Shown here: in pieces, positions 7,884 to 59,253 of the stretch
How positions within the stretch are numbered: the stretch's first letter is position 1
Layout: every line of letters begins with the position of its first letter
Assembly: GCA_023245335.1 (NCBI GenBank)
Contig: JAHFKK010000001.1
Location: 1,000,019 to 1,064,018, forward strand
Length of the DNA: 64,000 nt
Origin: Candidatus Gottesmanbacteria bacterium
GTDB lineage: Bacteria > Patescibacteriota > Microgenomatia > UBA10105 > UBA927
Direction of reading: 5' to 3'
Position numbers and translations under genes: made by a program
The notes under the pieces: model-generated
Databases searched by the model: none
What the model was told of the DNA's origin: nothing
Seen by the model: only the letters and a program-made list of their open reading frames with translations

Positions 7884-7997
7884 CACTGGAATCAAAAATA
7901 GTCAGTTGCGTGACATGACGATTTGACACCACATGACCTAATGTATAGCATACGAGTTGCAAGGAGCACATTTACAGGGAGCGGAAACTGGAAATTT

Positions 7998-8165
7998 TTT
8001 AGCGTGTGGCCCCGGTCACGACACAATCGGACCGTGGGATACGAGGAAGGCGTAAGCGAAACTATCTGCGGGTACGCCTCGGTTGCACTCTCAACCGCAA
8101 TCCGGATGAAAAACCCAACCGTAAGGCTGGATATAGATCAACCGGTTATGAGTCCGCCTCTCTAG
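7998..8165 (+). ncRNA. glmS ribozyme (glucosamine-6-phosphate-activated self-cleaving riboswitch)
   Basis: Found 150 nt upstream of the glmS ATG. It aligns to the conserved core AGCG...ACGAGGA-GGCG-UAAGCGAAA-CUGCGGGUACGCCU-CGGUUG...CAACCG...CCGUAAGG (Rfam RF00234: GACGAGGA..UAUCGAAU..GGCGGAUGCCUCC..CGGCUG..CAGCCGUAAGG). Confidence 0.55.
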
Positions 8166-8314
8166 ATCATTCTTACAAATTTACAAACAAAGGGCAGCAC
8201 ATAGCTTGTTCTGTCTTTAACTACGTTTATTAGGTGTGTCACGTATCATGTATCAATGTGTCACGCTCACATTCCTGACACTTGAGACCTGACGCCCATG
8301 ACACTATATATCTT

Positions 8315-36883: not shown

Positions 36884-37561
36884 GACCGACTTATTATGGC
36901 AGATTTATCACGGATTACAATGGGATTCCCACAAAAAATCCCTGGCGGAGCCAGGGAAATTTGTTTAATCCACCCGATCTTCCTTTGCGCCTTACCTACT
37001 ATTCGTAGCGCGGCGCAAAGAGCGATCTTTAGCGGACTTCGGTGCCTTTAGCAACCGGATGGTGATAGGGTTCACCCAGAGCAATGAAAAGAAACCACAC
37101 CGCATAGAGCGGAAGCAATTATCTTTTCGTGCATAGGGTTAGGGATTTGAGAGAAAACTAGAAAAGATCATCCCGCTAAATGCGGAATATCTCGATCATG
37201 AACTAGTTTTCAAATAGAAAGGAGGTGATCCATCCCCAGCTTCGGCTAGGGATACCTTGTTACGACTTAGTCCCCATCGCTGAACTTACCTTCGACTCGT
37301 AAACGAATCTTCGGGTACTTTCAACTTTGGTGGCTTGACGGGCGGTGTGTACAAGACCCGAGAACGTATTCACCGCGGCCTGCTGATCCGCGATTACTAC
37401 CAATTCCAACTTCATGAGGTCGGGTTGCAGACCTCAATCTGAATTGAGGCGAAATTTTAGAGATTTGCTTGGCATTACTACCTTGCGTCCCGTTGTTATT
37501 CGCCATTGTAGGGTGTGTGTGGCCCAGGGCATAAGCGCCGTGCTGACTTGACGTCGTCCCC

Positions 37562-37690
37562 TCCTTCCTCCCCCTCTCTATAAACAGAAGTAAATAGTAA
37601 TGAGTAAATAGTAAGTAGATTAAAAACAAAAACGTTTTCTTTCTATTCACTACTCACTATTTACTATTCACTCTTCCGTCCATAGAGAGG
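37562..37690 (-). repeat. ~128-nt palindromic expansion replacing 16S helix 40, built from a TAAATAGTAA-type repeat unit
   Basis: It lies between GGAGACCGCC and GAGGAAGG, where E. coli has the 15-nt h40 hairpin. It forms the stem ccctctctat...atagagaggg with internal tandem repeats taaatagtaaNgag. Confidence 0.7.
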
Positions 37691-37760
37691 GGGCGGTCTC
37701 CGATGACACTTGTAACATCGGATAGGGGTTGCGCTCGTTGTCCCACTTAAGGGAACACCC

Positions 37761-37791
<31 letters not shown>

Positions 37792-37905
37792 GCTGTGCTA
37801 CCATCCTTGCGGATCCCCTCCCATTTCTGGATGGGTAAACGGTAGCATGTCAAACCCTGGTGAGGTCCTTCGCTTTGTCTCGAATTGAACCACACGCTCC
37901 ACTGG

Positions 37906-37937
<32 letters not shown>

Positions 37938-38326
37938 TAAGCTTGCGCTCGTATTCCCCAGGCGGTCTGCTTAACGCGTTAGCTTACGACAGACAGATTG
38001 CTCTGCCCATCTAGCAGACATGCGTTTAGGGCTAGGACTACGCAGGTCTCTAATCTGCTTCGCTCCCCTAGCTTTCGTGTCTCAGCGTCAGATATTGGCC
38101 AGAAAGGTGCCTTCGCCTTCGGTGTTCCTCATGATATCAACGCATTTCACTGCTTCACCATGAGTTCCCCTTTCCTCTCCAATCCTCGTAGTTTACCCAT
38201 CTCGTATCCAACGTCGAGGTTAAGCCTCGAGCTTTCAGATACGATGCGGTATACCGCCTACACGACACTTTACGCCCAGTAAATCCGGATAACGCTTGCA
38301 CCCTACGTATTACCGCGACTGCTGGC

Positions 38327-38560
38327 CTGTCACACATTGTGACAAACTTTGGACTATATCTTCATCCCGATTCGTATCGGGAGTCTCGCGTATAGTCTCT
38401 GAGGACTCTCTCCGCCAAAGGCGGAGGTTGCCTGCTGATTGTCTTGATACATGTCTGCTGTGTAGCAGAATACTTCGCGGTATATCAAGGTGTTCCAGCA
38501 TATAGCGAGATTTTCTTTCATTACATTACTGTATGACTACGCACCAAACCCCTTACCGGG
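38327..38560 (-). other. ~234-nt insertion in 16S rRNA at E. coli position ~514/515 (within the 515F primer site)
   Basis: Conserved flanks ...ACTACGTGAC | insert | GCCAGCAGTCGCGGTAATAC. The insert is hairpin-rich and has no ORF. Confidence 0.7.
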
Positions 38561-38987
38561 GTCACGTAGTTTGTAGGTGCTTATTCGCCAAAGCCTGTCG
38601 ACCTTGGCAAAAGAGGTTTACGATCCGAAAACCTTCATCCCTCACGCGGCGTCGCTCGGTCAGACTTTCGTCCATTGCCGAATATTCCCAGTTGCTGCCA
38701 TCCGTAGATGTATGGCCCGTGTCTCAGTGCCATTGTGGGGGGTCGTGCTCTCACACCCCCTATCCGTCGTCGCCTTGGTAGGCCTTTACCCCACCAACTA
38801 GCTGATAGATGCAGGGCCACTCCTCCTCCGCGCGGTTAAGCGCTTTGACCTTACGGCCTCATGCGGTATTACCCCGTCTTTCGACGAGCTATCCCACAGA
38901 AAAGGGCATGTTCCCTGCTTATACTCACCCGTCCGCCACTGTAAATTAAATCTTGCGACTCAAAAAACCGTTCGACTTGCATGCTTA

Positions 38988-39030
<43 letters not shown>

Positions 39031-39239
39031 AAAAAAATTGACGTAAGGAGCATTTGTTTGACCAAATTCTGCTTACATCAAAAAAAATCCTATCACCATT
39101 CGATTGTTAAAGTACTCTCCTGAGAGAAAACGTAGATTTTCTCCCAACGCGACCTAGTCAAGCTGGCAGGTGCTTTCGCGATTCCTGCCGTCGCTGCTTT
39201 TCCCGGTTAGTGAAAAGCGAGGTGATGCAAAGAGCGAAA

Positions 39240-40011: not shown

Positions 40012-40695
40012 TCATACGAGGAAAAGAAGACTCAAGCACCCGATCCCGGACCCCAAAAGCAGCCCCCCTAGGACGTCAGAAAACCAATGTTCACCCAAAT
40101 ATATCCGGCTTATTGATACGAGCAATACATAAACAACCGCAAGTATGATCGGGACCATTTTGTATACACGCGACTTGCCGTTCTCTTTGGTTAGAGTTGA
40201 CTTCAAATACAAGAGAACGCCGATTATCCCTATAAACAAAGCGCGGGCCGCATGCCCCGACGGATACGAAAATTGTTCATTCACATAGTTCGCCGGGAAA
40301 AGCGACGTCGGGTGCTTGATCATGCTAAACGGCGGTGAAGGATGGTGGACAATGGATTTGCCGTATAACTCCGCAAGAAGTATGAGCCCGAACCCTATAG
40401 GAATAACCATCGCCATCGGATAAAACCGCTTCTTTTTCCGGTCGTAAGCCATCCCAACCGCTAACACGATAACAACCACGCTGGTAAATGCCGGGCTCGC
40501 AAAAAATGTGGAGCCTTCCATGATATTGCCGACAAGGGACGCGAGCCGTAAATGTGCCGAGCGGTCTATCCGTTCCTGTATCTTCACGGTAACTGCGAAA
40601 TCGAGATTCCGCAGTTGTGGCCGGTCTTCAAACTTGGAAAGGAATGTGAACGCCACGAGACAACATATGCTCACTCCCAACGCGATGCGTTTCAT
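40012..40695 (-). CDS. PAP2-family phosphatase (candidate undecaprenyl-PP/lipid phosphate phosphatase)
   Basis: PAP2 motifs KxxxxxxRP, PSGH (SYPSGHAARA) and SRxxxxxHxxxD (SRIYLGEHWFSDV). Start taken at MKRIALG, which leaves a 52-bp divergent spacer to the next gene. Confidence 0.75.
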   Translation of the reverse strand: MKRIALGVSICCLVAFTFLSKFEDRPQLRNLDFAVTVKIQERIDRSAHLRLASLVGNIMEGSTFFASPAFTSVVVIVLAVGMAYDRKKKRFYPMAMVIPIGFGLILLAELYGKSIVHHPSPPFSMIKHPTSLFPANYVNEQFSYPSGHAARALFIGIIGVLLYLKSTLTKENGKSRVYKMVPIILAVVYVLLVSISRIYLGEHWFSDVLGGLLLGSGIGCLSLLFLV

Positions 40696-40747
40696 AGAAA
40701 CTATTGTATCGTATTTTCCTATGCTACAATGATTTGCGTACGACGAG

Positions 40748-42319
40748 ATGAAAAAAATACTGTTCTTTAGCCTCACCATTTTCCTAAGCGCCATCGCCGT
40801 ATGGTATGGCATCACCCATCACCGCGGCGTGACCTGCCCCCGATGCAACATTATCGTCATCACGGTAGACAGCATCCGCGCCGACCACCTACCCTGCTAC
40901 GGTTACGCACTAAATACCGCTCCTCATCTTTGTGCTTTTGCCGACGAAAATCTGCGCTTTACCCGCATGTTCGCAAATTCCACCTGGACACGTCCCAGTG
41001 AATTATCCATGCTGACATCTCTTTATCCGGTAAGTCATGGCATGACCGACCCTCTCCCTACTCATATGAATCCCAAAATTACGACACTGCCGCAAGTGTT
41101 GTATCGTAACGGTTATGAAACAACATTCGTGAGTAATGATCATCTGAACATGGCACTCGAGTTAGGCTTCGGACGGGGATTTCAGCACATCCAATTCACT
41201 CCGGCGATCATCAATGACGAAACGATGCACACGTGGTCGGACACGATAGACTCGATACAAACCGCGAACAAAAAACATAAACCGGCATTCGTTTTTATCC
41301 ACACGGACCATGTCCATGATTACATCGAAGAAATTCTACGGCCCCCGCAAAAATTCCCACTAGATCCGGCCTACCGGTCAAATATAAACTATCCAAAACA
41401 ATTTACCGAAGAAACCTGGAAACGTTCCATCGATTATCTTACCCACAGCATGGAGGTTGGTTGGGGAACCGACCCGATAAACGAGCAGGACGCATGGCGC
41501 ACACAACTGCGGCAGGCCAAAACATTGGACGAGGCACGTCAGGTATTTCTCCAGTTTCCAGAAACTCTCCAGTATGATCTCTATCTCAACATCGCACAGG
41601 ATGATCTCTATAAAAATAATTTTGCCGATTTCATGGAATTATGCAGACACCTCTATGATGAGAATATCCGCACCTTTGATCTATCATTTGAAAAACTCCT
41701 CAAGCGCATCGATGAGGACGGCATCAGCCGGAACACGATTGTCGTCGTAATCGGCGACCACGGACAGCTCTTGGGTGAATACGGGCTCATCGGACACATC
41801 CTCGGCATATCCAACGAGGAAATCCACGTTCCCTTTATTGCTCGGATTCCCGGACTATCATCACGTGTCATTGACGGATTGACACAGGGCATCGATCTCT
41901 ACCCCACGCTTCTGGATGTGGTGGGGATATCGCCGCCGAAGACCGTTGCCGGCATCAGTCTCCGTAAACTCTTGACGAATCAAAAAAACGCGCCGCAGAA
42001 TAAATACGTCATAAGCCAGACGCTGCTTCCGGATCACTTGGAAAGCATACAAACAGACCGTTGGCGACTTGTCGAAGGATTTTATCCCATTGGAATCTCA
42101 CGAAATCTCTACGACCTTGCACGCGATCCCAAACAACTCCACAGCGTATCCCCGACGACACAGCCCGTCGTTGATGCGCTCACCAAACTTTTAGAAACCA
42201 CCATACGCCGGCAACCCGTCTATCCGCCGGTGCAGTCGGCCTTCCCTGATTGGTTTGATGCGACTGTCCGAAAACAACGCATAGACAAAGGCTATTACTT
42301 TGACCCGCTTCATGGTTAA
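40748..42319 (+). CDS. Sulfatase-like (alkaline-phosphatase superfamily, PF00884-like) membrane-anchored protein, paralog 1; Thr-type LtaS/EptA-like candidate phosphotransferase
   Basis: N-terminal TM, then CPRCNIIVITVDSIRADHLPCYGY (metal-ligand Asp region). NSTWTRPSELSMLTSLYP sits where the sulfatase C/S-x-P-x-R motif would be. Confidence 0.75.
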   Translation: MKKILFFSLTIFLSAIAVWYGITHHRGVTCPRCNIIVITVDSIRADHLPCYGYALNTAPHLCAFADENLRFTRMFANSTWTRPSELSMLTSLYPVSHGMTDPLPTHMNPKITTLPQVLYRNGYETTFVSNDHLNMALELGFGRGFQHIQFTPAIINDETMHTWSDTIDSIQTANKKHKPAFVFIHTDHVHDYIEEILRPPQKFPLDPAYRSNINYPKQFTEETWKRSIDYLTHSMEVGWGTDPINEQDAWRTQLRQAKTLDEARQVFLQFPETLQYDLYLNIAQDDLYKNNFADFMELCRHLYDENIRTFDLSFEKLLKRIDEDGISRNTIVVVIGDHGQLLGEYGLIGHILGISNEEIHVPFIARIPGLSSRVIDGLTQGIDLYPTLLDVVGISPPKTVAGISLRKLLTNQKNAPQNKYVISQTLLPDHLESIQTDRWRLVEGFYPIGISRNLYDLARDPKQLHSVSPTTQPVVDALTKLLETTIRRQPVYPPVQSAFPDWFDATVRKQRIDKGYYFDPLHG

Positions 42320-43883
42320 ATCAGCCACTATCGGCAGTATCATATTCCTAAGTATATTCACGGTGGTTATACTTTGGCGCTCGCCTCTCAGAGCATCCCG
42401 CACCCCCGTTTGCTGGCACTGCAACGTCATCCTCATAACCGTAGATAGCCTGCGGGCGGACAGTCTCCCCTGTTATGGATACGCGAAAAATACCGCCCCG
42501 TTCATGTGTGAGTACGCAAAAAAGAATATACTATTCTCCCGAGCGTACGCACCTTCGTCCTGGACCCTGCCAAGCGAAATGTCGCTTTTCACCGGTTTAT
42601 ATCCCACCAACCACGGCATGGACACGGCGATGCAGGATATGCTGAACCCACAGATCACTACGCTCCCGATGGCTCTTCAAAAGAGCGGCTACGAAACGAC
42701 AGCGATCTCAAATGCGCAACCCAACATCGGTTTAGAACAAGGATTGGGACGCGGGTTTACGACAGTAAAAGCTACTCCAAATACTCCACATGATGCGATA
42801 CCCATGCTCCTTGAGGCAGTCGATACGATTCAAACTACAAACGACAGGCACAAGCCGGCATTTGTGTATTTTCATACCGATGGCGTACACAACTACAACA
42901 GCGGTTTCCCTGACGTGCCCTCGTCCTACCCGCTCGATCCTACTTATCATCCGCCGATGATGCCCAAAGACATGTACGCATTTACCCAAAATACGTGGGA
43001 CGTGATGCTTGATCATCTTCTATGGGTAACAAACGTGGATGGTAACAAAAATATTGACGACCCATATACGCGCAGCTATACGCACCTTATGAACGCAAAG
43101 ACACTTTCAGAGGCGAAAACGGTGTTTGACTCGCTGCCGTCCGCCGACCGGAATGCAATCAGCTGGGAAAGCGGTAATGATAAAGTACGGGAATTTCTCG
43201 GATCGGATTACGCGCCGCTTTCCCGGCACCTCTATGACGAAGCCGTCCGAAACGTCGATACCTATATGACACAGGTATTCACGCGTCTTGCCGAACGGAA
43301 TCTGGATAAAAATACGATCGTCATCATCACCTCAGAACACGGAGAATTCCTGGGAGAACGCGGACTTTTCGGTCACGGGACGCAATTTTTTGATCCCGAA
43401 ACCCATGTCCCGCTCATTATGCATGTACCCAACGTTTCGCAAAAGACGGTCACGGGACTCACATCCCTTCTTGACGTCTATGCTACCGTTATTGACCTCC
43501 TCGAACTCCGCGTACGGGCCCCCGCAACGAGTGTCAGCCAAGCAAAAACGCTCTTCCTCAAACGTCCTGCGTCTGCCCGCACGTTTGTCATCAGTGAATG
43601 GTTCAGCAACATGCACAATAAAAGCATACGCACGAACGAGTGGCACCTCTTAGAAACACGGAGCCCAAGCGGAGAAGCAATCCGCGAACTGTATCATATT
43701 CTGTTCGATCCGTCCGAAACGACCAATGTCGCCTCTACCAACGCTTCTGTCGTCGCGGCCCTTTCGAAACTCCTTCGCGACACACCGTATTCCGAACAAC
43801 TCTACGAACCAGTCTCCCGATCGTTTCCGGACTGGATCGACGAGGCACATCGCAAAAAACTCATAGAAACAGGGTATTATTAA
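42300..43883 (+). CDS. Sulfatase-like Thr-type alkaline-phosphatase superfamily protein, paralog 2
   Basis: CWHCNVILITVDSLRADSLPCYGY; SSWTLPSEMSLFTGLYP; C-terminal WIDEAHRKKLIETGYY. Confidence 0.75.
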   Translation: MTRFMVKSATIGSIIFLSIFTVVILWRSPLRASRTPVCWHCNVILITVDSLRADSLPCYGYAKNTAPFMCEYAKKNILFSRAYAPSSWTLPSEMSLFTGLYPTNHGMDTAMQDMLNPQITTLPMALQKSGYETTAISNAQPNIGLEQGLGRGFTTVKATPNTPHDAIPMLLEAVDTIQTTNDRHKPAFVYFHTDGVHNYNSGFPDVPSSYPLDPTYHPPMMPKDMYAFTQNTWDVMLDHLLWVTNVDGNKNIDDPYTRSYTHLMNAKTLSEAKTVFDSLPSADRNAISWESGNDKVREFLGSDYAPLSRHLYDEAVRNVDTYMTQVFTRLAERNLDKNTIVIITSEHGEFLGERGLFGHGTQFFDPETHVPLIMHVPNVSQKTVTGLTSLLDVYATVIDLLELRVRAPATSVSQAKTLFLKRPASARTFVISEWFSNMHNKSIRTNEWHLLETRSPSGEAIRELYHILFDPSETTNVASTNASVVAALSKLLRDTPYSEQLYEPVSRSFPDWIDEAHRKKLIETGYY

Positions 43884-43896
43884 AATAATAAAGACC

Positions 43897-45477
43897 ATGA
43901 AAATACACCGGGGGTTCATCGTCATTTGTATCATCCTTCTCATAGGATTCATCGTCTTCATGCGCGAAATGCTCCATCCTCTCTCGTATCGAAATTCCTC
44001 CGCCTTATGCTGGAAATGTAATGTGGTAATTATCGCGATCGACCTTCTACGCGCAGACAGCCTCCCCTGCTATGGGTACCGCTTCGATACCGCCCCGAAT
44101 TTGTGCGCGTACAGCAACAATAACATCCAGTTTTCCCGAGCGTATGCGACATCGTCATGGACGCAACCAAGCGAGGCTTCACTGTTTACCGGACTTTACC
44201 TGCACAGTCACGGCATGAGCGCATCCATGCGCACGATGCTCAATCCCCAGGTCGCGACGTTACCAAAAATTCTATATGCTCATGGCTACGAAACTATCGC
44301 CGTTTCTAACATACAGCCGAACGTCGGCTTGGAAATGGGCTTAGGTAAAGGTTTTACGTCGGTTCGGTTGATCCCCGATACTCCCAATGATTCTGTACGG
44401 GGACTGCTTGGGGCGATCGACGCCATACAAAATGCCAATAATCATCGACGGCCGGCATTCGTGTTTTACCATACGGATACGGTCAGGGATTATCTCAATG
44501 ACATATCCGACCCCCCATCTTCATTTTCATTTGATCCCGTCTACCACTCACCGGCGTTACCTAAAAATATCTACGAGTTCACTGAGCATACATGGACGGT
44601 AATGCGCGACCATCTGCTCTATATCATAAATGTCGATACGCTTCGCGACAAAGACCGTACGTACAGCAAACTGTACGACAAGCTCCAAAACGCAAAAACA
44701 CTTGCAGATGCACGGAAGGTATATGATGCATTACCGGCGTCAGAACAGGGCGAGATTATTTGGGAAAGCGGACAGGCGACCGTACGAACAACACTCGGTA
44801 ATCGCTACGCACCGTTTGTCCGACACCTCTACGATGATTCTGTACGTACCATAGACGACGCCCTGCGTCCGGCTATAGAAAAACTCTCACAGCGCGCGCT
44901 AAGTCGTCGCACCGTGGTGATCATAACGTCAGAACACGGTGAATATCTGGGGGAACGCGGCATCTTCGGCCACACTCAGCCGTTATTTGAACCGGAGACG
45001 CACGTTCCGCTTATTATGCATATCCCGAAAATATCTAAGGCCCGCGTAGAAACGCTCGCTTCACTCATTGATATCTACCACACCGTCTTCGATCTCATCG
45101 GCGTACGTACGGCCATTCCGAAAAGCAGCATTAGTCAAATACCGGCAATACTGCATGACACGCGCGAACCGGGACGAACGTTTGTCATAAGCGAATGGGC
45201 GCATACTCACCGTGACGAGAGTATCCGTACAAACGAGTGGCACTTCATGATGCGATGGACCTCTAATATCATGACGGAGGAGTTGTATGACCTATCCACC
45301 GATCCGACCGAAACCAAGAATGTTGCTTCTACTCATCCGAGCGTAGTGAAATCCTTGAAAGAAACGCTCTACCTGACGCTCGGCTTGGAACCCGTGTATA
45401 CACCTATCAATCTATCTTTTCCAAACTGGATTGACGAGGCTCATCGGAAAAAACTGATTGAGACTGGATACTACTAG
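43897..45477 (+). CDS. Sulfatase-like Thr-type alkaline-phosphatase superfamily protein, paralog 3
   Basis: CWKCNVVIIAIDLLRADSLPCYGY; SSWTQPSEASLFTGLY. The C-terminal 16 aa are identical to paralog 2. Confidence 0.75.
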   Translation: MKIHRGFIVICIILLIGFIVFMREMLHPLSYRNSSALCWKCNVVIIAIDLLRADSLPCYGYRFDTAPNLCAYSNNNIQFSRAYATSSWTQPSEASLFTGLYLHSHGMSASMRTMLNPQVATLPKILYAHGYETIAVSNIQPNVGLEMGLGKGFTSVRLIPDTPNDSVRGLLGAIDAIQNANNHRRPAFVFYHTDTVRDYLNDISDPPSSFSFDPVYHSPALPKNIYEFTEHTWTVMRDHLLYIINVDTLRDKDRTYSKLYDKLQNAKTLADARKVYDALPASEQGEIIWESGQATVRTTLGNRYAPFVRHLYDDSVRTIDDALRPAIEKLSQRALSRRTVVIITSEHGEYLGERGIFGHTQPLFEPETHVPLIMHIPKISKARVETLASLIDIYHTVFDLIGVRTAIPKSSISQIPAILHDTREPGRTFVISEWAHTHRDESIRTNEWHFMMRWTSNIMTEELYDLSTDPTETKNVASTHPSVVKSLKETLYLTLGLEPVYTPINLSFPNWIDEAHRKKLIETGYY

Positions 45478-47027
45478 CGGCGCACAGCGTTCGCGAAACT
45501 TTGCCACTCTGCGTCAAGCCTACTATTCTCCTTCATGAGGCGTTTTGCGGTGTCCAAATGATCGGCGAGAACGTTATTTGTTTCCATCGGATCCTGCGCT
45601 ACATTATATAACTCATACGGAACGAACCCTCCGTTTAACCATTTCATGAACATTTTCCAGCCATCATTCCGTACCGTTTTGACTTCATGATCTGTGTTGT
45701 ATCCGTTGGCAATAAGTAAACGATCCCTCAATCTATTGCCGACTGCACTATCTAAAAGACTGATCCCCTGGAAAAGGTAACGCCGCACCGGTAGCCCCAG
45801 CGCATCGATAATCGTTGGGGCGATATCTATGCCTTGCACCGGACCTTCCACAACGTGCTTGTCGTATCCCGGGATAGACACGATAAAGGGCACTTTTGTA
45901 TTGGAGTCATACAGCGTTATATGACCTAGCCTGCCATGTTCCATAAATTCCTCACCATGTTCTGACGTAATCACTACAATCGTATTTTTTTGTATCGCGG
46001 GGCTCTCAAGAAATGGAATAAGCACCCGGCCGATCCATGCATCCAATTCAAATATCTTCTGATCATAGAGCGCCTTGACGTATTCCACCTGACGGGGATC
46101 ACGAAGGTCTATTTTAGAAAAATAGTTATATTCGGTATAGTAAGAATCCAGTTCGTTCTCTTTGCTTTGCGCAAGTTGTTTTGCAGCCGAGAGCGTCGGC
46201 GCATTTTCCAGTTTCTCAAGAAAAGCCGTATCAACCGTCGCATTCGGTTTCCCCACAGTCTGGGACAATTGATCGACAAGGTACCGGTAAAAACCGGGAG
46301 AAAAATTGTCGTAAATTCCGTCCCACGTCAGCGGTATATTGGGGAAACGATCATTGGTAAACATCGGTGTGGGATTGTTGGGAATATACGGACCGTGCGC
46401 CTCATATGAATGAAGGTATAGAAATGTCTTATGCCCGTTTGTCACGCTTTTGAGGAACGCTGTCAGCGCCGCGCCGAGATCCTCATCCGGACCGTATCCG
46501 ACGGGGATAACACCAGTGACTCCTTGTTTATAGACGCCGTCGACGGGAAACGCCTGATCATGTTCGGGAACTCCGAAATATGTGGTGTATCCGTTTTGCC
46601 GCAATATTTCCGGCAACAGCGGCGCGGTCGCCGGCAACGTCTTCATTTCATCCTCAAGATTGAGGATCCGGTGATACTGCGGATACCAGGAGGTAAACAT
46701 CGACACATCGGCAGGAAGCGTCCATGACGCATTGCTATATGCGTTTTTAAAAAGAACCGATCTTCCTGCATACCTGCAGAGATTCGGGGCGGTGTTTCTC
46801 GCATATCCATAACAGGGCAGGTGGTTTGCGCTCACGGTATCGAGTGAGATCACGATGACATTACAATTTTTGCATACCGGTCCCCTCCTCTGAAAAAATC
46901 CGGCGAGACGGGAGAAATAAGGTGATACAATGAGAAAAAGAATGGCGATGAGACTACCGATGATAACCATCGCACGAATGTGTTTACGGTTTGGGAAACA
47001 ATCATCAATGAACGTACGGTAGCGCAT
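45474..47027 (-). CDS. Sulfatase-like Thr-type alkaline-phosphatase superfamily protein, paralog 4
   Basis: CKNCNVIVISLDTVSANHLPCYGY; ASWTLPADVSMFTSWYP. Convergent with paralog 3, overlapping it by 4 bp. Confidence 0.7.
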   Translation of the reverse strand: MRYRTFIDDCFPNRKHIRAMVIIGSLIAILFLIVSPYFSRLAGFFQRRGPVCKNCNVIVISLDTVSANHLPCYGYARNTAPNLCRYAGRSVLFKNAYSNASWTLPADVSMFTSWYPQYHRILNLEDEMKTLPATAPLLPEILRQNGYTTYFGVPEHDQAFPVDGVYKQGVTGVIPVGYGPDEDLGAALTAFLKSVTNGHKTFLYLHSYEAHGPYIPNNPTPMFTNDRFPNIPLTWDGIYDNFSPGFYRYLVDQLSQTVGKPNATVDTAFLEKLENAPTLSAAKQLAQSKENELDSYYTEYNYFSKIDLRDPRQVEYVKALYDQKIFELDAWIGRVLIPFLESPAIQKNTIVVITSEHGEEFMEHGRLGHITLYDSNTKVPFIVSIPGYDKHVVEGPVQGIDIAPTIIDALGLPVRRYLFQGISLLDSAVGNRLRDRLLIANGYNTDHEVKTVRNDGWKMFMKWLNGGFVPYELYNVAQDPMETNNVLADHLDTAKRLMKENSRLDAEWQSFANAVRR

Positions 47028-47056
47028 ACGAGCGGTATACCTCTAGAGTATACCAG

Positions 47057-47698
47057 ATGCCTATGAGACCGAATCGACATTTCTCGTACCATTTTTCCAC
47101 AAACTCGCTTCTGTATTCCTTCATGATTCTTATCGGTCTTTTTCTGTTCGCTTTTGCCATGTCGTATCACACGTGCGACAGACTCACCTGTATCTCTGTT
47201 TCCGGAAAACACACGTGGAAAGAGATAGACGCGTACGAACATACGGCAAAGACATATCGCGCGCTCTTTCAAGCAAATACCTATCGGGTCCGGGTAGAAA
47301 AAAATTCAGGACTCACGACCGACGATGCGGCGCTCCTTATGAAGGTAAACATGATGAAAATTTCCGGCCTGTTCGATGACGCCCGCTCACCATACCCGGG
47401 CGCATTGTCCGACCGGATTGTCTGCGATCATGCCTACAAACCGGACATCCGGCATATGACAAACGACTCGCAACTACCGATTACCTACTACACGGGGTGG
47501 CTCAATGACCGACTCCAATTCGGCTCATGTTTGGACTCGGAACTACCATACAAAAGCTATAACGCATATGCGTATTGCCCCCGGGAAAAAGCGTTATATC
47601 ATCTCGAGTGGATTATAAACCGCTCGAAGGACAATGAGGATGAATATATGAATTCGATGCGTACCATGCGGTGTCAAACACCATTCCCATCTCTTTAA
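47057..47698 (+). CDS. Membrane-anchored Cys-containing hypothetical protein
   Basis: 213 aa with an N-terminal TM (LLYSFMILIGLFLFAFAM) and a probable extracytoplasmic domain with 6 Cys. Confidence 0.4.
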   Translation: MPMRPNRHFSYHFSTNSLLYSFMILIGLFLFAFAMSYHTCDRLTCISVSGKHTWKEIDAYEHTAKTYRALFQANTYRVRVEKNSGLTTDDAALLMKVNMMKISGLFDDARSPYPGALSDRIVCDHAYKPDIRHMTNDSQLPITYYTGWLNDRLQFGSCLDSELPYKSYNAYAYCPREKALYHLEWIINRSKDNEDEYMNSMRTMRCQTPFPSL

Positions 47699-47713
47699 GT
47701 CCGGGGTAGTATG

Positions 47714-48334
47714 TTATGGAAGCGATCCTTCTGCCTGTTTCATGATTTCGTAAAGGATGATGCCGCAGCTGACCATCACGTTGAGGCTTATGTTAATCCC
47801 CCACATGGGCATCTCTACGATGAGATCTGCCATATCAAGCACCTCGGAAGAAACGCCTTTTGTTTCGTTCCCGACAACGATCGCCAAGGGCAACGCATAT
47901 CGTACATCGTAAAACCGTTTGCTTCTTTTATCCTGTTCGACCGCCACGACGGTAAGCTTCGGGTTCGTCGCCTTGAGCGTCAAAATAGCCGCGGCTGCGG
48001 TCGTCGCATATTCCCAGTTTACCCAACCGGTCGTGTTAATAGACGCTTTTTTTATTCTGGAGTTCGGGGGGGTCAGCGTCTCGCCGCAAAGGATGACTTT
48101 TTCAGCTGCAACCGCATCGGCAAGCCGGAAAATCGATCCCACATTATACGTATCCAATACGTTATCGACGATAATAATAATCGGATTTTTTGTAATTGCC
48201 CGTTGCACGTCAGCATCCGGTACGGTCGTACGAAGTTCTCGTGCATTCAGTTTGATCATGGACTGATTATACTCGGAAATACGTGATACTATACATACCA
48301 TACGGTCACCGTTCATATGAAATCTACTCAACAA
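47714..48334 (-). CDS. TrmH/SpoU-family RNA 2'-O-methyltransferase
   Basis: SPOUT motifs: IIIVDNVLDTYNVGSIFR, VVGNETKGVS, and MPMWGINISLNV (knot). Confidence 0.8.
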   Translation of the reverse strand: MLSRFHMNGDRMVCIVSRISEYNQSMIKLNARELRTTVPDADVQRAITKNPIIIIVDNVLDTYNVGSIFRLADAVAAEKVILCGETLTPPNSRIKKASINTTGWVNWEYATTAAAAILTLKATNPKLTVVAVEQDKRSKRFYDVRYALPLAIVVGNETKGVSSEVLDMADLIVEMPMWGINISLNVMVSCGIILYEIMKQAEGSLP

Positions 48335-49873
48335 CGTATACTCTTCCTCATAATTCTCTTCTCCGTTTTTGCCGTCGGTAAGACCGCATGGGACCGCTTT
48401 TCCGTACCCTGTTATCGCTGTAACGTTGTCGTGGTCGCCATTGATGACCTCAGGGCAGATGCCTTACCGTGTTTCGGCTACCGCCTCGATACGGCATCGA
48501 ACCTTTGCCAATATGCAGCAAAAAATATCGTGTTTTCTGCGGCCTACGCCAATGCCCCATCGACGAAACCCAGTGAAATGTCATTATTTACCAGCCTATA
48601 TCCGCCAAGTCACGGGCTGGTATCGAGTGCGTCGGGGAAACTCAATCCGCGGATAGTCACATTACCCCAGGCGTTCCAAAACGCAGGATATGAAACGACG
48701 TTCGTCGGCGAAGACACACCGGCACTTGCGCCTGAAGCGGGATTCGGACGCGGGTTTGACACCGTTCACATCACCGACAATATTCTCAACAGCACGACCT
48801 CTGCCATATGGAAGGATGCTTTCGATGGCATAAAAACCGCCAACGACAAACACAAACCCGCGTTTGTCTATCTCCACGCAGCTCATGTTCATGATTATGC
48901 AAATAATCTTTTTAAGTTTACTGAGCCCGGCAGCTTTTACCTGGATCCGACCTACCAATTCACGGACTATCCGAGTCAGCAGGAATTTACTCAACTCAAA
49001 TGGGACGCGATGATGGATTTTATCAACAACACCATCAACACGAGCTGGAATGCAGAAGTAGTCGCTCAATATAAAACGTGGCTCCGCCTCGCGGAAAACG
49101 CGCAAACGGTTGACGAGGCCAAGTCTGTATATCTCTCGTTGCCGGCCAATATGCAAAGACCCATATATCATTTGTTCGCCGCTACCTACGTGAATCTTTA
49201 CCAGTTCGACTCGCTCGTCTCGCTTGCGAGGCATAATTACGATCAGTCCATCTGGGCATTCGATAATAAATTTACGCCGCTCCTTGAGCGCTTGAGACAA
49301 AACGGTTTGACCGACAACACCGTCGTCGTCATCCTCGGAGACTACGGTGAACTATTGGGCGAACACAACGTCGTTGGCCACGCACTCGCCGGATTCTATG
49401 AGAAAGAGTTGCATGTCCCGATGATCTGGCACGTCCCCAATGCCGGCCACCGAACCGTGAGCTCTCTCGCACAACTTATAGACGTCTATCCCACCCTGGT
49501 AAACCTGGTCGGCATACCCAAGCCCGACACGCTTGCCGGCATAAACCTGAGAGGACAGATGTTCGGAGATCCCCGCGCACCAAAAAATACGTATACCATC
49601 GGGTATCTCATTCCCCACGACATTTCCTATGCCACGCAAATTCCGTTTACCAGTAACCAATACAGTATCCAAACTGACGCGTGGCGCCTCGTGGAGGTAC
49701 ATAATCCCGGAGGCACCTATCAGACGCTCTATGACCGAAAAACCGATCCGGGGGAGCTCCACAACATGATCGTCAAAGCTCCCGATGTCGCACAGACGCT
49801 CTCGTCTCTCCTTCACACAACCCTTGACCGCCAAATCATATATCCTCCGATTCTTCCTGCGATAAGCCCCTGA
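48317..49873 (+). CDS. Sulfatase-like Thr-type alkaline-phosphatase superfamily protein, paralog 5
   Basis: CYRCNVVVVAIDDLRADALPCFGY; NAPSTKPSEMSLFTSLYP. Confidence 0.7.
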   Translation: MKSTQQRILFLIILFSVFAVGKTAWDRFSVPCYRCNVVVVAIDDLRADALPCFGYRLDTASNLCQYAAKNIVFSAAYANAPSTKPSEMSLFTSLYPPSHGLVSSASGKLNPRIVTLPQAFQNAGYETTFVGEDTPALAPEAGFGRGFDTVHITDNILNSTTSAIWKDAFDGIKTANDKHKPAFVYLHAAHVHDYANNLFKFTEPGSFYLDPTYQFTDYPSQQEFTQLKWDAMMDFINNTINTSWNAEVVAQYKTWLRLAENAQTVDEAKSVYLSLPANMQRPIYHLFAATYVNLYQFDSLVSLARHNYDQSIWAFDNKFTPLLERLRQNGLTDNTVVVILGDYGELLGEHNVVGHALAGFYEKELHVPMIWHVPNAGHRTVSSLAQLIDVYPTLVNLVGIPKPDTLAGINLRGQMFGDPRAPKNTYTIGYLIPHDISYATQIPFTSNQYSIQTDAWRLVEVHNPGGTYQTLYDRKTDPGELHNMIVKAPDVAQTLSSLLHTTLDRQIIYPPILPAISP

Positions 49874-49885
49874 CCAAAACACTCA

Positions 49886-50686
49886 GTGAACCTTTCATTC
49901 TTCTCTGATATGATATATCCCATGAATCTATTCGGGGCACTCGTGCTTTCGGTCGTCGAAGGGATAACAGAGTTTCTTCCTGTTTCCTCAACCGCGCATC
50001 TTGTGTTGGTGTCCAAACTCATGAATCTCACAACGACAAACTTTAGCAAAAGCTTTGACGTCGTGATTCAGTTCGGCGCGATACTTGCTATCGTGAGCTT
50101 ATATTGGAAAACCATAGTGACCAAACCCAAAATGCTTATTCCGATAGCCGCCGCATTTGTCCCGACCGCGATCATCGGGCTTCTCCTCTACAAACTCATC
50201 AAAAACGTACTCCTTACCGATATTCCGGTCATCATAGGCTCATTGATAGTAGGTGGAGTCGTCCTTATTCTTATGGACAGATTTACGAAAAAACCCAAAT
50301 TTGCGGACCTGACGAGCATGCCGCTTACGCACGCAGTCATCATCGGGATCGGGCAGTCACTCGCAGTCGTGCCGGGGGTCTCCAGATCTGCCGTAACCAT
50401 CATCACCGCACTTCTCTTGGGCTGGAATCGGGAATCAGCGGTTGAATTTTCATTTCTCCTTGCGGTTCCGACGATTGCGGCTGCTGCAGGTCTGGACGCA
50501 GTGAAAAATATCCATGCCCTTACCAGTAATCTTCCCGCGCTTGGCGTCGGATTTCTTGGGTCTTGGCTAACGGCCTATTTTGCGGTCAAAGGATTCGTCG
50601 GATTCGTCAAAAGAAACAATTTTGCGGTTTTCGGATGGTATCGCATCATCGCGGCCGGAGCCTTTTGGTTGATCTCGGGCGTATGA
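49886..50686 (+). CDS. uppP: Undecaprenyl-diphosphate phosphatase (BacA/UppP)
   Basis: Signature VEGITEFLPVSSTAHL and a second SRSA(V/A)TI motif. 8 TM, 266 aa. Confidence 0.85.
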   Translation: MNLSFFSDMIYPMNLFGALVLSVVEGITEFLPVSSTAHLVLVSKLMNLTTTNFSKSFDVVIQFGAILAIVSLYWKTIVTKPKMLIPIAAAFVPTAIIGLLLYKLIKNVLLTDIPVIIGSLIVGGVVLILMDRFTKKPKFADLTSMPLTHAVIIGIGQSLAVVPGVSRSAVTIITALLLGWNRESAVEFSFLLAVPTIAAAAGLDAVKNIHALTSNLPALGVGFLGSWLTAYFAVKGFVGFVKRNNFAVFGWYRIIAAGAFWLISGV

Positions 50687-52485
50687 TAGTGTTTTTTGCT
50701 ACACTCGCAGTATTTATTTTCCCAGGGCTCGCTATTCTTCTTCGTTGGGATGTATTCCCAACGGATTATATCAGCGAAAAAATTCCCCTTGGCGTCGCGT
50801 TATCTCTCGCCTGGTGGATCATAGGATTTTGGTTCCTCCGCATCGCACCGATCCCGCTCCATATGTTTGTCATCCTTTCACTCGTTTCTGCCGTCTTCCT
50901 CATCGCGCTCTCACTTCTTGCGCCAAGAAGAGAGAAAAAGATATCTCCGGCAGGATCAATCCGAACGGACATTGTCATCCTTCTTTTTTTCCTTATACTT
51001 CTCGTGCCCGGAAGCCTCATCGCTACCCGTCAAATCGGACCGACCGGACAGGATATGTCTATGCACAGCTACTTGGCAACCATCATATATCATACCGATG
51101 GATTTCCGAAAACGATGCGACCGATTGTCCCTTCGGATCAGTTCGGCTACTACCCGGTAGGATTCCCGACTGTTATGGCTGTGATGATGACCATAAATCG
51201 CCTCCCGGTAATAACCAACGGACTATGGCTCACTATCCTCACATACTGGCTATTTGCCGTATCGCTCTATACGCTCATCCGTACACGTTATTCTGTCTTC
51301 GTCAGCATGCTCGTTACGATTGTCATGAGCTGGGGAAATGCGATGCCCAATGACATCATCGTCTGGGGCTCTAACCCCACCGTATTATCATTGGATTTTC
51401 TGATACTTTCCGTTTCAGCGCTACCCGTTCGGAAACACGCGGGGTCATACATAGTTCTCTTTATTTTTTTCTATGCCTCATTCCTCACCCACTATATGCT
51501 TCCGGTCGCACTCATCTATCTCGCGCTTACGGTCTCGCCATTCTTCGGTCGGGCGATGACGCAATGCATCCGCTTTGTTCAAAAACATCCCGCGTCACTT
51601 ATTATCACGCTCATCGCAACGCCTTTTCTTTGGCACATATATACGTACACCTGGTATATTTCCAATGCAACCAAGCTGTATGTCGCAGGACTTCAGAGAA
51701 ATGATCTGTCCGCATGGGTCGGTGCGCCCGGATGGGAAATCGTACGCGCAAGTTTCCAATTTCTCACGTCCGTATTTTCAGGACCGGTACTTATTTCTTA
51801 TACTCTCTCGATTCTGGTCATCGCGCTTGTTAATAAACGCCATGCCGCACTCCATATCGTTTCGTTCCTCGGCATAATCATACTTATCGTCAATTCACGA
51901 TATTGGTGGCTGCCGCTGTCAGCCATCCTGTATCCCGACCGCGTTATTTTATTTGAAATCATCCCCATAAGCCTCGGGCTTGCCGAAGCGTCCACGATAG
52001 TATTAAACCGCACATACAAATATTTTATTCTTCACCGCCCGCGGAATTATTTCCTCTTGCATGTCATCGCTATCGCGGTCGTCGTCTACGCATTCGGACC
52101 CGGAATTCGCGTCTCATTACAGAAATTCCTGACATCAGCCGACATGAGTGTCATAACGAAAGATGATCTACAAGCCTTCGCATGGATCCGCGAGCGTACA
52201 AATCCAACTGATGTCATCATGAACAATTACTACGACGCGGGTATCTGGATACCGGCAGTGGCAACACGCTCGATCACAACGTATCACACCAATCCTATTG
52301 ATATGGACCTCATCAACGCAAACGTACGACAGCCGGATTACGCGTATATCGGGAATAAGTCGCTCGTGAGTGCGGGCACTGATCGCGTCGATGAGGAAGT
52401 CGCACGTCATCCGGAAAAATATGTATTGGTCTACGAAGCGGGAAGTGCGAAAATTTATCGCGTACGACGAGCTGTAGCCGAATGA
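50683..52485 (+). CDS. Large polytopic membrane protein with C-terminal extracytoplasmic domain (putative GT-C-like glycosyltransferase)
   Basis: About 600 aa with ≥12 TM. The start ATG overlaps the uppP stop (ATGA). The frame's upstream Met at 50563 lies inside uppP and was rejected. Confidence 0.55.
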   Translation: MIVFFATLAVFIFPGLAILLRWDVFPTDYISEKIPLGVALSLAWWIIGFWFLRIAPIPLHMFVILSLVSAVFLIALSLLAPRREKKISPAGSIRTDIVILLFFLILLVPGSLIATRQIGPTGQDMSMHSYLATIIYHTDGFPKTMRPIVPSDQFGYYPVGFPTVMAVMMTINRLPVITNGLWLTILTYWLFAVSLYTLIRTRYSVFVSMLVTIVMSWGNAMPNDIIVWGSNPTVLSLDFLILSVSALPVRKHAGSYIVLFIFFYASFLTHYMLPVALIYLALTVSPFFGRAMTQCIRFVQKHPASLIITLIATPFLWHIYTYTWYISNATKLYVAGLQRNDLSAWVGAPGWEIVRASFQFLTSVFSGPVLISYTLSILVIALVNKRHAALHIVSFLGIIILIVNSRYWWLPLSAILYPDRVILFEIIPISLGLAEASTIVLNRTYKYFILHRPRNYFLLHVIAIAVVVYAFGPGIRVSLQKFLTSADMSVITKDDLQAFAWIRERTNPTDVIMNNYYDAGIWIPAVATRSITTYHTNPIDMDLINANVRQPDYAYIGNKSLVSAGTDRVDEEVARHPEKYVLVYEAGSAKIYRVRRAVAE

Positions 52486-53036
52486 CGGTGTGAGCGGTGG
52501 CGGAGACTCTTCGCCCGCTCCGATGTGACGAATGAAACACTCGCCCGGCCGATTCCCCACCCAAACAATGCCCCAAAAAGAACGTCCAAAGGATAATGCA
52601 CGCCCATATAAATGCGGGAAAGAGAAATGAGTATTGCCAAAAGGTACAAGCCCGTACGGAGTCGGGGTTCATATACGGAGATCACTTCCGCCATAGCAAA
52701 CGATATGGCGGCATGTCCCGACGGAAACGAATATCCGGAGGCGCCATACACGACGATGGTATCCAGTAGCTGTGAAGGCCGTAAACGCCCGATCAACGGT
52801 TTCATGATCCCTTCTACGAGGGCAAGCGTTCCCAATCCGACGGTCACTATAGGAATGAAAAAACGATGATTTTTTTCTTCCTCCCGCAAAAACAGGATGA
52901 CACCAATCACAAACCAGATAATGCCATACGATCCGATGCCGGAAAAAAATTCCGCTACCGCATTACTCCACGCAGTATGCGGCAAATGATTGACTGCAAA
53001 AAATAGCCGATAATCTAGGGCAAGCAGTGTGTTCAT
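52455..53036 (-). CDS. PAP2-family phosphatase (second copy)
   Basis: KPLIGRLRP, PSGHAAISFA, SRIYMGVHYPLDV. 193 aa. Confidence 0.75.
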   Translation of the reverse strand: MNTLLALDYRLFFAVNHLPHTAWSNAVAEFFSGIGSYGIIWFVIGVILFLREEEKNHRFFIPIVTVGLGTLALVEGIMKPLIGRLRPSQLLDTIVVYGASGYSFPSGHAAISFAMAEVISVYEPRLRTGLYLLAILISLSRIYMGVHYPLDVLFGALFGWGIGRASVSFVTSERAKSLRHRSHRHSATARRTR

Positions 53037-53038: not shown

Positions 53039-53332
53039 CTAGGGAGTAGGCGTTGCCGTCGAGGCGCTGACGGAAGCGGCTTTGGGTGTTGCCGTGGGTT
53101 TGACTGTCGCTTTCGGCGTCGGCTTCGCCGTCGTTCCCGTAGTCGGCGCAAGCGTATCAGGCGGTTCTACCGAAGTCGTCGGACTTATGAATATAACCCG
53201 TATGGCTCCTTCATCCGGCACGGGAGACACGACTTTGCGTCCGGAAATGACTATACCGATAATAACCACAACAAAAACAACGACCCCGACGATGATGGTG
53301 AGCGCAGCAATAGTCTTTCTCCGGTCATCCAT
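53039..53332 (-). CDS. Small membrane-anchored Pro/Thr-rich protein
   Basis: N-terminal TM IIVGVVVFVVVIIGIVI and C-terminal PTTGTTAKPTPKATVKPTATPKAASVSASTATPTP. Confidence 0.4.
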   Translation of the reverse strand: MDDRRKTIAALTIIVGVVVFVVVIIGIVISGRKVVSPVPDEGAIRVIFISPTTSVEPPDTLAPTTGTTAKPTPKATVKPTATPKAASVSASTATPTP

Positions 53333-58641: not shown

Positions 58642-59253
58642 TTAACGAAATGGAGGTACCTTGTTATACAAAAGTAATACCCCCAACGAATACGCGGTTC
58701 CCAGAACAACTTCCAGCATATTATGGCGTTTGAGTTTGAGCCTGCTCCACCCAAGGATAGGGACAAGGCTCCCCAAAACCCAAAGCGAGAGCTCATACCA
58801 GCTGACGAGTAGCCCTATTGCCAGTACGAAAACCGCCATATGGCCGGAAATTTTTATCCGGAGCGTGATGAGGAAAAACCCAATCAGCCACAGAAGGAAC
58901 AGTTCAAAAAATCTGGATAACGCGGCGTTGTGCCAGAGGTAGGTCGACCAAAAAAGCAAAAAACAAAATGCGAGGAGAAGGATGAGAAGCCGCACGCGTT
59001 TGGGGCGGTTCGAGATATCCCAGTTGGTATGCATCATACGCGTGAGGCGTACCCGCGCGATGGCGACTATGACACCCACGGCAACGATATAGAGCGCGTA
59101 CGTCGCATACAGAAACCCCCGGAGGTGTACGTGCCACGCACCGATAAGCGCGATTGCCAAAAAAACTACCATCGGTTCAAAAATTTCCGATACGATTCGT
59201 GCGAGCACCGACTCTTCTGTCTTCATATATGTATTATACTTTCCGCGCGGCAA
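58642..59253 (-). CDS. Polytopic membrane protein (possible MreD-like)
   Basis: 203 aa, 5-6 TM, sitting between mreB and the PBP2 gene. No mreC is detected. Confidence 0.4.
   Translation of the reverse strand: MPRGKYNTYMKTEESVLARIVSEIFEPMVVFLAIALIGAWHVHLRGFLYATYALYIVAVGVIVAIARVRLTRMMHTNWDISNRPKRVRLLILLLAFCFLLFWSTYLWHNAALSRFFELFLLWLIGFFLITLRIKISGHMAVFVLAIGLLVSWYELSLWVLGSLVPILGWSRLKLKRHNMLEVVLGTAYSLGVLLLYNKVPPFR

Follow-up and report, generated by a model that had tools for sequence, protein, structure and literature searches.

Threonine-Type Sulfatase-Fold Paralogs beside uppP and a GT-C Gene in a Candidatus Gottesmanbacteria Genome: Candidate Glycan-Ester-Modifying Enzymes

Patescibacteria, also called bacteria of the Candidate Phyla Radiation (CPR), live attached to hosts, and their envelopes are almost uncharacterised. 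A genome of Candidatus Gottesmanbacteria (assembly GCA_023245335.1, contig JAHFKK010000001.1) raises a specific question about such an envelope: what do five diverged sulfatase-like paralogs do in an array bracketed by two PAP2 phosphatase genes and containing uppP and the gene of a GT-C membrane glycosyltransferase? We analysed a stretch of 64,000 nucleotides of this contig (positions 1,000,019 to 1,064,018; the window), in which the array lies between about 40 and 53 kb. An original prediction, made from the DNA letters alone, had likened the paralogs to the Thr-nucleophile enzymes LtaS, EptA and OpgB and had proposed that they decorate an undecaprenyl-phosphate-linked polymer with phosphoglycerol or phosphoethanolamine. 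By sequence and predicted fold, the five proteins are better described as an S1-sulfatase scaffold that appears to carry a Thr-type phosphoryl-transfer active site. Our leading reading, tentative and a little short of probable, is that they are glycan-ester-modifying enzymes working with an oligosaccharyltransferase-like GT-C pathway and with recycling of its carrier lipid. The genes of the array are as follows, in window coordinates:

40012-40695 (-): PAP2a, 227 amino acids, six hydrophobic segments; PF01569 E 9.5e-17, 61.4 bits against a cut-off of 27.2
40748-42319 (+): W1, paralog 1; PF00884 E 1.1e-40 plus SGSH_C; D41, T81, D337-H338, H350
42312-43883 (+): W2, paralog 2, 523 amino acids (protein P0001); PF00884 E 2e-42; E-H-G variant
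43897-45477 (+): W3, paralog 3; PF00884 E 3.5e-35; E-H-G variant
45474-47027 (-): W4, paralog 4, the most divergent copy; PF00884 E 9.8e-35
47123-47698 (+): unk191, 191 residues, not characterised, secreted or anchored, with conserved Cys and an 'SPYPG' motif
47714-48334 (-): SpoU methylase, inside the array
48317-49873 (+): W5, paralog 5, heading the W5-uppP-GT-C operon; PF00884 E 5.7e-37; D-Y-G variant
49886-50686 (+): uppP/bacA, undecaprenyl-diphosphate phosphatase; PF02673 E 8.4e-69, 232.5 bits against 33.4; TIGR00753 223.3 bits against 217.5
50683-52485 (+): GT-C membrane glycosyltransferase, 600 amino acids, DUF6541-related, oligosaccharyltransferase-like; its ATG overlaps the uppP stop
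52455-53036 (-): PAP2b, convergent with the GT-C gene; PF01569 E 9e-24, 84.1 bits against a cut-off of 27.2
53039-53332 (-): membrane-anchored protein of 97 residues with a Thr/Pro/Ala-rich tail, adjoining PAP2b

All five paralogs matched PF00884 (E 9.8e-35 to 2e-42) in the profile search that had been proposed as a check on the original prediction, and four of them passed the SGSH_C threshold; secondary matches to PF01663 occurred in all five and exceeded the Pfam cut-off in W1, W2, W3 and W5. Pairwise identities range from 24 to 50%, far above chance, with W2 and W3 at 50% and W4 at 24-28% to the rest. The closest relatives by sequence match are S1 sulfatases, with 6HHM the best (E 5e-22), and phosphonate monoester hydrolases; the partial NCBIfam scores point to these two groups as well. 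Structure prediction, likewise proposed beforehand, gave an AlphaFold2 model of W5 (pLDDT 93.7) with an alkaline-phosphatase-superfamily fold of the S1-sulfatase type, for which the closest folds were the S1 sulfatases 5G2V and 7P24 (Foldseek E 1e-26, TM-score about 0.6). The two-domain architecture of S1 enzymes is kept, with an alkaline-phosphatase-like N-terminal domain and a C-terminal SGSH_C subdomain, and the W5 model contains an extra helical insertion of about 100 residues (226-328). Every paralog has a single hydrophobic segment, at its N terminus, as had been predicted; in the W5 model this is one helix at residues 2-29 ahead of the catalytic domain. Positive charges lie N-terminal of the transmembrane helix, and four Cys residues are conserved in the clade (CxxC, LPC, and NLC). 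The catalytic domain is thus probably extracytoplasmic, which fits the single transmembrane segment, the side of the charges and the four cysteines.

We took residue equivalences from sequence alignments, including a joint alignment with Cys-type homologs. When the paralogs are aligned with sulfatases of solved structure, their Thr falls on the Cys that becomes formylglycine ('wTrPSE' opposite 'iCaPSR' in 6HHM), and the joint alignment gives the same Thr/Cys register for all five. At the columns of the sulfatase C/S-x-P/A-x-R motif, all five read T-x-P-[SA]-[ED], with an acidic residue (Glu or Asp) where sulfatases have Arg. Only W5 keeps the second Asp of the 'DD' metal motif, the columns of the GKxH pair (Lys-A and His-A) are not conserved, and Lys-B has become an invariant His. 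Formylglycine cannot form from Thr (PMC5066984), and an arylsulfatase loses all or nearly all of its activity when the equivalent Arg, Lys and His are mutated (PMC12421950). Because Thr occupies the formylglycine position and Arg, Lys-A, His-A and Lys-B are all replaced, the paralogs are not sulfatases of a known kind, and the earlier exclusion of formylglycine sulfatases stands for all five copies.

The residues that remain by alignment are D41, T81, [D/E]337-H338 and H350, the last 13 residues after position 337. This set appears to mirror that of MCR-1/LptA-type enzymes; in MCR-1 it consists of E246, T285, D465-H466 and H478, and Thr285 has been observed phosphorylated (PMC5031297). The metal-ligand pair is D-H in W1 and E-H in W2 to W4, and W5 has D-Y-G (residues about 342-344); its metal site is therefore altered, and in some copies the site may be changed or missing. 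None of the five copies departs from the Thr, the first Asp or the His at +13, and nearly all close relatives keep these residues too. Alignment and topology together bear out the claim that these are Thr-type, outward-facing proteins belonging to the alkaline-phosphatase superfamily, with conserved metal ligands, save for the Tyr that replaces a ligand His in W5. The motifs given for the family needed some correction: the CxxCN...D..RAD.LPCYGY block is real, but W4 has VSAN in place of RAD, and the Thr/Pro pattern of W-T-x-P-[SA]-[ED] is general, but W5 reads S-T-K-P and has no Trp.

How these proteins relate to characterised members of the superfamily is a matter of several partial likenesses. 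They share with EptA/LptA, MCR-1 and EptC the Thr nucleophile, the acid and Asp-His ligands, the His at +13 and an outward PF00884 domain. However, EptA, MCR-1 and EptC have five or more transmembrane helices, which form the lipid-donor site, where the paralogs have one, and they lack both the T-x-P motif and the S1-type C-terminal subdomain, SGSH_C being present in four of the five paralogs. LtaS and GacH are also extracytoplasmic Thr-type PF00884 proteins; they build or decorate envelope glycopolymers and occur as multiple paralogs in Gram-positives. Their polytopic N-terminal domain and T-x-N-x-E type motif (PMC5066984) are both missing from the paralogs, which score at most 35 bits against the 970 of the LtaS NCBIfam model, and neither LtaS nor GacH was among the best 50 fold matches. 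More broadly, no curated NCBIfam cut-off was approached, scores being 15-64 bits against 500-1250; for the models of lipid-donor phosphotransferases they were 15-40 bits against 493-1250, and the weak partial matches to EptA, MCR, LtaS and YejM lie around the DHG region. The paralogs resemble the S1 sulfatases and the phosphonate monoester hydrolases (BT4656 5G2V, BT3177 7P24, FA22070 6HHM, RlPMH 2VQR, and EfAS) in their two-domain architecture and in where the nucleophile and the D-H/N-G metal pair are placed, but they lack the formylglycine Cys/Ser, Arg, Lys-A, His-A and Lys-B of these enzymes and carry the helical insertion in addition. Like NPP enzymes (PF01663), they have a Thr nucleophile, a Pro two residues further on and the character of an ecto-enzyme, although PF00884 scores are much higher and we did not find the NPP bimetallo His/Asp set in them. 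The likeness to LtaS, EptA and OpgB that had been drawn from Thr-x-P thus survives in the residue inventory but not in the fold, the scores or the membrane domain, and the closest relatives in both sequence and fold are S1 sulfatases and phosphonate monoester hydrolases instead.

The gene map agrees with the original prediction in placing five paralogs of about 520 residues (517-526) in the array, with PF01569 confirming both of the PAP2 genes that bracket it. The longest open reading frame of W2 begins at a TTG at 42300, whereas the public gene call begins at the ATG at 42312, where the W2 start overlaps the W1 stop by 8 nucleotides. PAP2a is divergent from W1. W5, uppP and the GT-C gene form a tight operon, with a gap of 12 nucleotides between W5 and uppP and a 4-nucleotide overlap (ATGA) between uppP and the GT-C gene, so that the translational coupling of uppP to an open reading frame of about 600 codons was correctly read, and the identity of uppP is secured by the TIGR00753 cut-off. 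For the two PAP2 proteins, the nearest NCBIfam models are undecaprenyl-diphosphate phosphatases (SepP for PAP2a), at scores below the cut-off (42-66 bits against 229-250).

The 600-residue partner of UppP has no Pfam match, STT3 included, and no NCBIfam match, and a profile search of the PDB gave chance matches only. Fold comparison was more informative: 15 of 21 significant Foldseek matches were STT3, PglB or AglB. Membership in the GT-C class is established by this predicted fold, in keeping with the earlier description of the protein as GT-C-like, and likeness to oligosaccharyltransferases is a lead only. The protein shares with STT3, AglB and PglB the GT-C fold and a C-terminal globular domain, but not a Pfam STT3 match or a sequence match to a solved structure. 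The WWDYG motif of oligosaccharyltransferases sits at the start of the C-terminal domain; at the same place the GT-C family of the window has an invariant 'NNYxDAGxWIPA', which bears only partial likeness to it. The coupling to uppP and the PAP2 neighbours would make sense because a GT-C enzyme using an undecaprenyl-diphosphate donor would release undecaprenyl diphosphate outside the cell.

Is this arrangement conserved? In six Gottesmanbacteria-like relatives (loci L002, L004, and L006-L009), the genes follow the order PAP2 - [S] - SpoU - S - UppP - GT-C - PAP2 - small protein - TopA - DprA, where S is a Thr-type sulfatase-like gene. The relatives have one to three S copies, and the five of the window are the largest set seen. 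The positions of PAP2a and PAP2b are kept in all six, as is the 97-residue protein beside PAP2b (L002, 14716-15048; L004, 11299-11646; and L006-L009). This small family combines a conserved juxtamembrane segment (KKVVSPVPDEGAIRVIFISPT) with a hypervariable Thr/Pro/Ala-rich tail and, speculatively, could be an acceptor for glycosylation of the mucin-like kind. Between the window and Candidatus Gottesmanbacteria metagenome-assembled genomes, TopA identity is about 73%; together with the intron-bearing 16S rRNA gene, this marks the organism as a CPR bacterium of the Microgenomates type. Because the relatives are fairly close and housekeeping genes are colinear as well, the recurrence is only moderate evidence of function. 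A general link of this gene family to uppP and the GT-C gene beyond the clade was considered and ruled out at the loci of distant DUF6541 homologs.

A stronger signal than the uppP/GT-C synteny is the pairing of W4 with unk191, two divergent genes. The original prediction was silent on unk191 and on the SpoU methylase gene, both of which lie within the array. The divergent W4-unk191 pair is kept in at least 10 more distant CPR loci (L003, L005, L010-L015, L017, and L059). The unk191 protein has no Pfam or NCBIfam match, and its family comprises 551 representatives at E<=1e-3. One member (P0279) fuses the unk191 domain to a sulfatase-like domain that has Ser at the nucleophile position, and another (P0261) fuses it to an NMT1/SsuA-like binding protein. 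With these 551 representatives and the one sulfatase-like fusion, the unk191/SPYPG proteins make up a new family, not yet characterised, whose functional link can be tested. In most loci with W4-like and unk191 genes there is also an NPP-like (PF01663) phosphodiesterase of about 665 residues with a single transmembrane segment, which is 59-72% identical between loci and keeps the NPP Thr ('PSHTPTNF'). Examples are found at L003 (16122-18143), L005 (11461-13455) and L059 (7342-9357), and the protein also occurs at L010-L012, L014, L015 and L020. We searched the 64-kb window for this partner (PDE664), and it is absent there.

The neighbours of W4-like genes also bear on the proposed polymer context. 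At L005, L015 and L059, they are part of glycopolymer clusters in which Wzy_C, WecG, GT4 (glycosyltransferase family 4) and Bac_transf genes also occur. A Pfam census of 95 neighbours at 14 CPR loci returned GT2 (four times), Polysacc_synt_2, YdjC and Wzy_C (three times each), and WecG and GT1 (twice each). A haloarchaeal member with T-L-P-S-H is flanked by GT4 genes and a Wzx-like flippase gene. The glycan context is not universal, however, because the neighbours of non-CPR members lack glycan synthesis genes. The idea of an undecaprenyl-phosphate-linked polymer is therefore upheld in part: relatives in CPR and in a haloarchaeon lie within glycan clusters, but the uppP/GT-C/PAP2 link is limited to one clade.

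The Thr-type family itself extends far beyond this clade. The authors of SulfAtlas counted Thr in place of Cys/Ser in 30 of 59 PF00884 seed sequences (PMC5066984). We surveyed the best 120 database matches to a profile of the paralogs, and most of them carry T-x-P-S-H or a variant of it; among their sources are haloarchaea, Binatia, Thermoanaerobaculia and Aminicenantes. The T-x-P-S-H proteins are often fused to TPR repeats and, where they are named in their sources, are called 'sulfatase' or 'arylsulfatase'. We found no biochemically defined member of this family in the literature. Its members are wrongly annotated in bacteria and archaea alike; once their chemistry is assigned, many annotations would be put right, and it could also become clear how sulfatase-fold proteins such as Agl30 and Agl31 (see below) act as transferases. 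The window proteins form a narrower group with four Cys residues, and in their closest clade Glu, Asn, Asp or Gln stands for the His of T-x-P-S-H; the part specific to the window is this four-cysteine Microgenomates subclade. In a distance tree, the five copies fall in old subfamilies and are not recent tandem duplicates, which confirms their description as diverged. W1 is orthologous to PAP2-adjacent copies in other genomes (that of L004 among them) and to P0004 and P0008, W2 and W3 group with uppP-adjacent copies (W3 with the one in L004 and with P0003 and P0005), and W4 belongs to a T-L-P-S-H clade of other Microgenomates (P0016 and the Gottesmanbacteria locus L005). The claim that the system is undescribed is right in part. 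Our search for literature on DUF6541, CPR oligosaccharyltransferases and Patescibacteria sulfatase or teichoic systems found nothing relevant; on the other hand, Thr for Cys is common in PF00884, and T-x-P-S-H occurs in many phyla. The array is a new variant of a known superfamily theme together with a new conserved partner domain, and not a categorically new system.

By published description, the closest known arrangement, and the best precedent, is found in Halobacterium salinarum. Three alkaline-phosphatase-superfamily proteins, structurally closest to the S1 sulfatases 5G2U and 6HHM, are encoded in its aglB-anchored N-glycosylation cluster, and deletion and heterologous expression showed that two of them, Agl30 (VNG1056C, with a single transmembrane segment) and Agl31 (VNG1057C), sulfate different sugars of a dolichol-phosphate-linked tetrasaccharide (PMC11980604). 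Agl31 is cytosolic and Agl30 is membrane associated on a side that was not shown, and neither the catalytic residues nor the donor was described (PMC11980604). Both loci have several sulfatase-fold paralogs next to an oligosaccharyltransferase, which is such by predicted fold only in the window. The window paralogs are nearest to 6HHM by sequence, have 5G2T and 5G2U among their fold matches and, like Agl30, have a single N-terminal transmembrane helix. In contrast to these archaeal sulfotransferases, which act at the dolichol-phosphate stage, they appear to be outward-facing, and the residues that bind sulfate are gone from them.

In the reading that we favour, the oligosaccharyltransferase-like GT-C protein would move a glycan linked to undecaprenyl (di)phosphate onto an extracytoplasmic acceptor, and UppP and the two PAP2 enzymes would recycle the released lipid carrier. 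The Thr enzymes would add, move or remove anionic ester groups on the lipid-linked or surface glycan by way of a covalent phospho-Thr. Phosphodiester-linked groups are the most likely substituents, with sulfate less likely, and different paralogs may serve different positions or substituents. W4 would work with the 191-residue SPYPG protein, the pair being joined in other Microgenomates by the NPP-like phosphodiesterase. Fold, motif, topology, operon structure, synteny and the domain fusion are shown by the data; what serves as substrate, whether the reaction is transfer or hydrolysis, and a functional tie to the GT-C protein are what we infer here. A bolder form of this proposal, which we think unlikely, is a Microgenomates-specific, outward-facing glycosylation system in which glycan transfer by the GT-C protein and UppP (with the 97-residue protein as candidate acceptor) is combined with Thr enzymes, the SPYPG partner and the NPP-like enzyme to install variable anionic esters without a polytopic domain. 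It would be a bacterial counterpart of Agl30/Agl31 with a new chemistry or donor. If glycan modification is the true role, clade-specific, fast-evolving surface enzymes of variable copy number, linked to carrier-lipid recycling and an oligosaccharyltransferase-like protein, would offer a handle on how CPR bacteria build or vary their surface.

Several observations weigh against glycan modification as the role of the array. The nearest sequences and folds are hydrolases, the best 50 Foldseek matches all being S1 sulfatases or phosphonate monoester hydrolases, and the paralogs have one transmembrane helix in place of a polytopic membrane domain. W5, the copy within the operon, is the one with Tyr for the metal-ligand His, and in some relatives the Asp is replaced by Pro, Gln or Gly. 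The linkage of S, uppP and GT-C genes was seen only in one clade, where spoU, topA and dprA are colinear too; distant DUF6541 homologs (P0129 and P0132) have no sulfatase-like, UppP or PAP2 neighbours; and the stretch from 40 to 53 kb has no gene for an initiating transferase or a flippase. Outside the CPR, the neighbours of family members are TPR, CarboxypepD_reg, TonB-receptor-like, GH116 and amidohydrolase genes, which gives these loci a catabolic look. Finally, the Halobacterium comparison is by description only, and it is with sulfotransferases of which one is cytosolic.

The main rival reading is that the paralogs are scavenging ecto-hydrolases: tethered Thr phosphodiesterases or phosphatases would degrade phospholipid head groups, teichoic acids, nucleic acids or organophosphates, taken from a host or the environment, on behalf of an auxotrophic CPR cell. 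PAP2 would then dephosphorylate lipid products further, and the uppP/GT-C neighbourhood would be merely positional. CPR bacteria depend on host lipids and nucleotides, and such a role suits the combination of one transmembrane segment with a two-domain S1 architecture whose nearest solved relatives are all hydrolases. It also suits the travelling of the W4 lineage with a well-conserved NPP-like ecto-phosphodiesterase, the GDSL lipase genes that adjoin PAP2a in L002 and L004, the catabolic-looking loci outside the CPR, and a copy number of one to five, as expected for an expansion of substrate range. We nevertheless consider scavenging somewhat unlikely: W5 shares a tight operon with uppP and the GT-C gene, W4-like genes in CPR repeatedly have glycopolymer genes near them, as does one haloarchaeal member, no phosphate-regulon gene or uptake transporter gene adjoins the array within the window, and the sole genetic data on sulfatase-fold proteins in an oligosaccharyltransferase cluster point to transferase roles (PMC11980604). 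The mechanism originally proposed, transfer of phosphoglycerol or phosphoethanolamine from a membrane phospholipid to an envelope polymer derived from undecaprenyl phosphate in the manner of LtaS, EptA or OpgB, is not established and is, in our view, distinctly unlikely. It fits the acid-Thr-[D/E]H-His(+13) inventory, the weak partial NCBIfam matches around DHG and an outward-facing catalytic domain, and EptC of Campylobacter reportedly puts phosphoethanolamine on N-glycans, which we also count in its favour. To our knowledge, however, all proven lipid-donor transferases of the superfamily (LtaS, EptA/MCR-1, OpgB, and GacH) have a polytopic membrane domain, and here that lipid-binding domain is absent, the S1-type SGSH_C subdomain is present, every curated cut-off is far out of reach and hydrolases fill the best fold matches.

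Two further alternatives appear much more remote. Sulfate-ester chemistry would call for an unconventional nucleophile, either Thr used directly or Thr oxidised to a ketone by a radical-SAM/SPASM maturase, in sulfatases or in sulfotransferases like Agl30/Agl31. The structures nearest to the paralogs (5G2V and 6HHM) coincide with, or are similar to, the ones reported for Agl30/Agl31 (5G2U and 6HHM), and radical-SAM/SPASM genes lie near family members at L005, L059 and L061; for example, two sulfatase-like genes at L061 (452-10035) are followed by five radical-SAM genes (four of the SPASM type and one of the B12-binding type) and a TPR protein gene. Yet none of the radical-SAM neighbours matches the anaerobic sulfatase-maturase model of NCBIfam, and no homologs of the relatives' radical-SAM genes were found in the 64-kb window; on these grounds, we rejected radical-SAM maturation of the Thr. 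The replaced Arg and Lys/His residues, the inability of Thr to yield formylglycine and the presumed lack of access of an outward-facing enzyme to 3'-phosphoadenosine-5'-phosphosulfate make sulfate chemistry highly improbable. It would be just as surprising if some or all copies were pseudoenzymes, non-catalytic binders or scaffolds that recognise anionic glycans or lipids. The D-Y-G of W5 and the S-P-H-G, S-Q-H-G, G-D-Q-G or S-G-H-G of relatives at the metal-ligand pair lend themselves to this view, but the invariance of the Thr, first Asp and +13 His argues otherwise, and W1 to W4 retain the complete ligand set.

Beyond the array, the 64-kb window is rich in envelope genes. A gene for a PMT_2-like membrane protein of the GT-C type lies at 6159-7883 (+) and a GT4 gene at 10393-11622, with genes for an L,D-transpeptidase at 28473-29909, PBP2 at 56675-58558 and MreB at 59234-60322. 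Two genes for YfhO-family GT-C membrane proteins, at 30670-33144 (+) and 33779-36160 (-), match PF09586 (E 2.9e-32 and 1.7e-17, respectively) and stand upstream of the 16S rRNA gene; YfhO-family genes are likewise found upstream in L002, L008 and L009. The 16S rRNA gene itself, at 37218-39036 (-) upstream of the array, contains a group I intron (38327-38573) and has no adjoining 23S gene, which is typical of CPR bacteria. A glmS ribozyme at 7990-8155 (+) precedes a 611-codon open reading frame at 8282-10117 (+), presumed to be glmS. Two unusual fusions were also observed: a 369-residue protein at 3710-4819 (-) combining nucleoside 2-deoxyribosyltransferase-like and thymidylate kinase domains, and a 509-residue protein at 13260-14789 (-) with MtrA-like, thymidylate-synthase-like and pterin-binding (DUF4346) regions.

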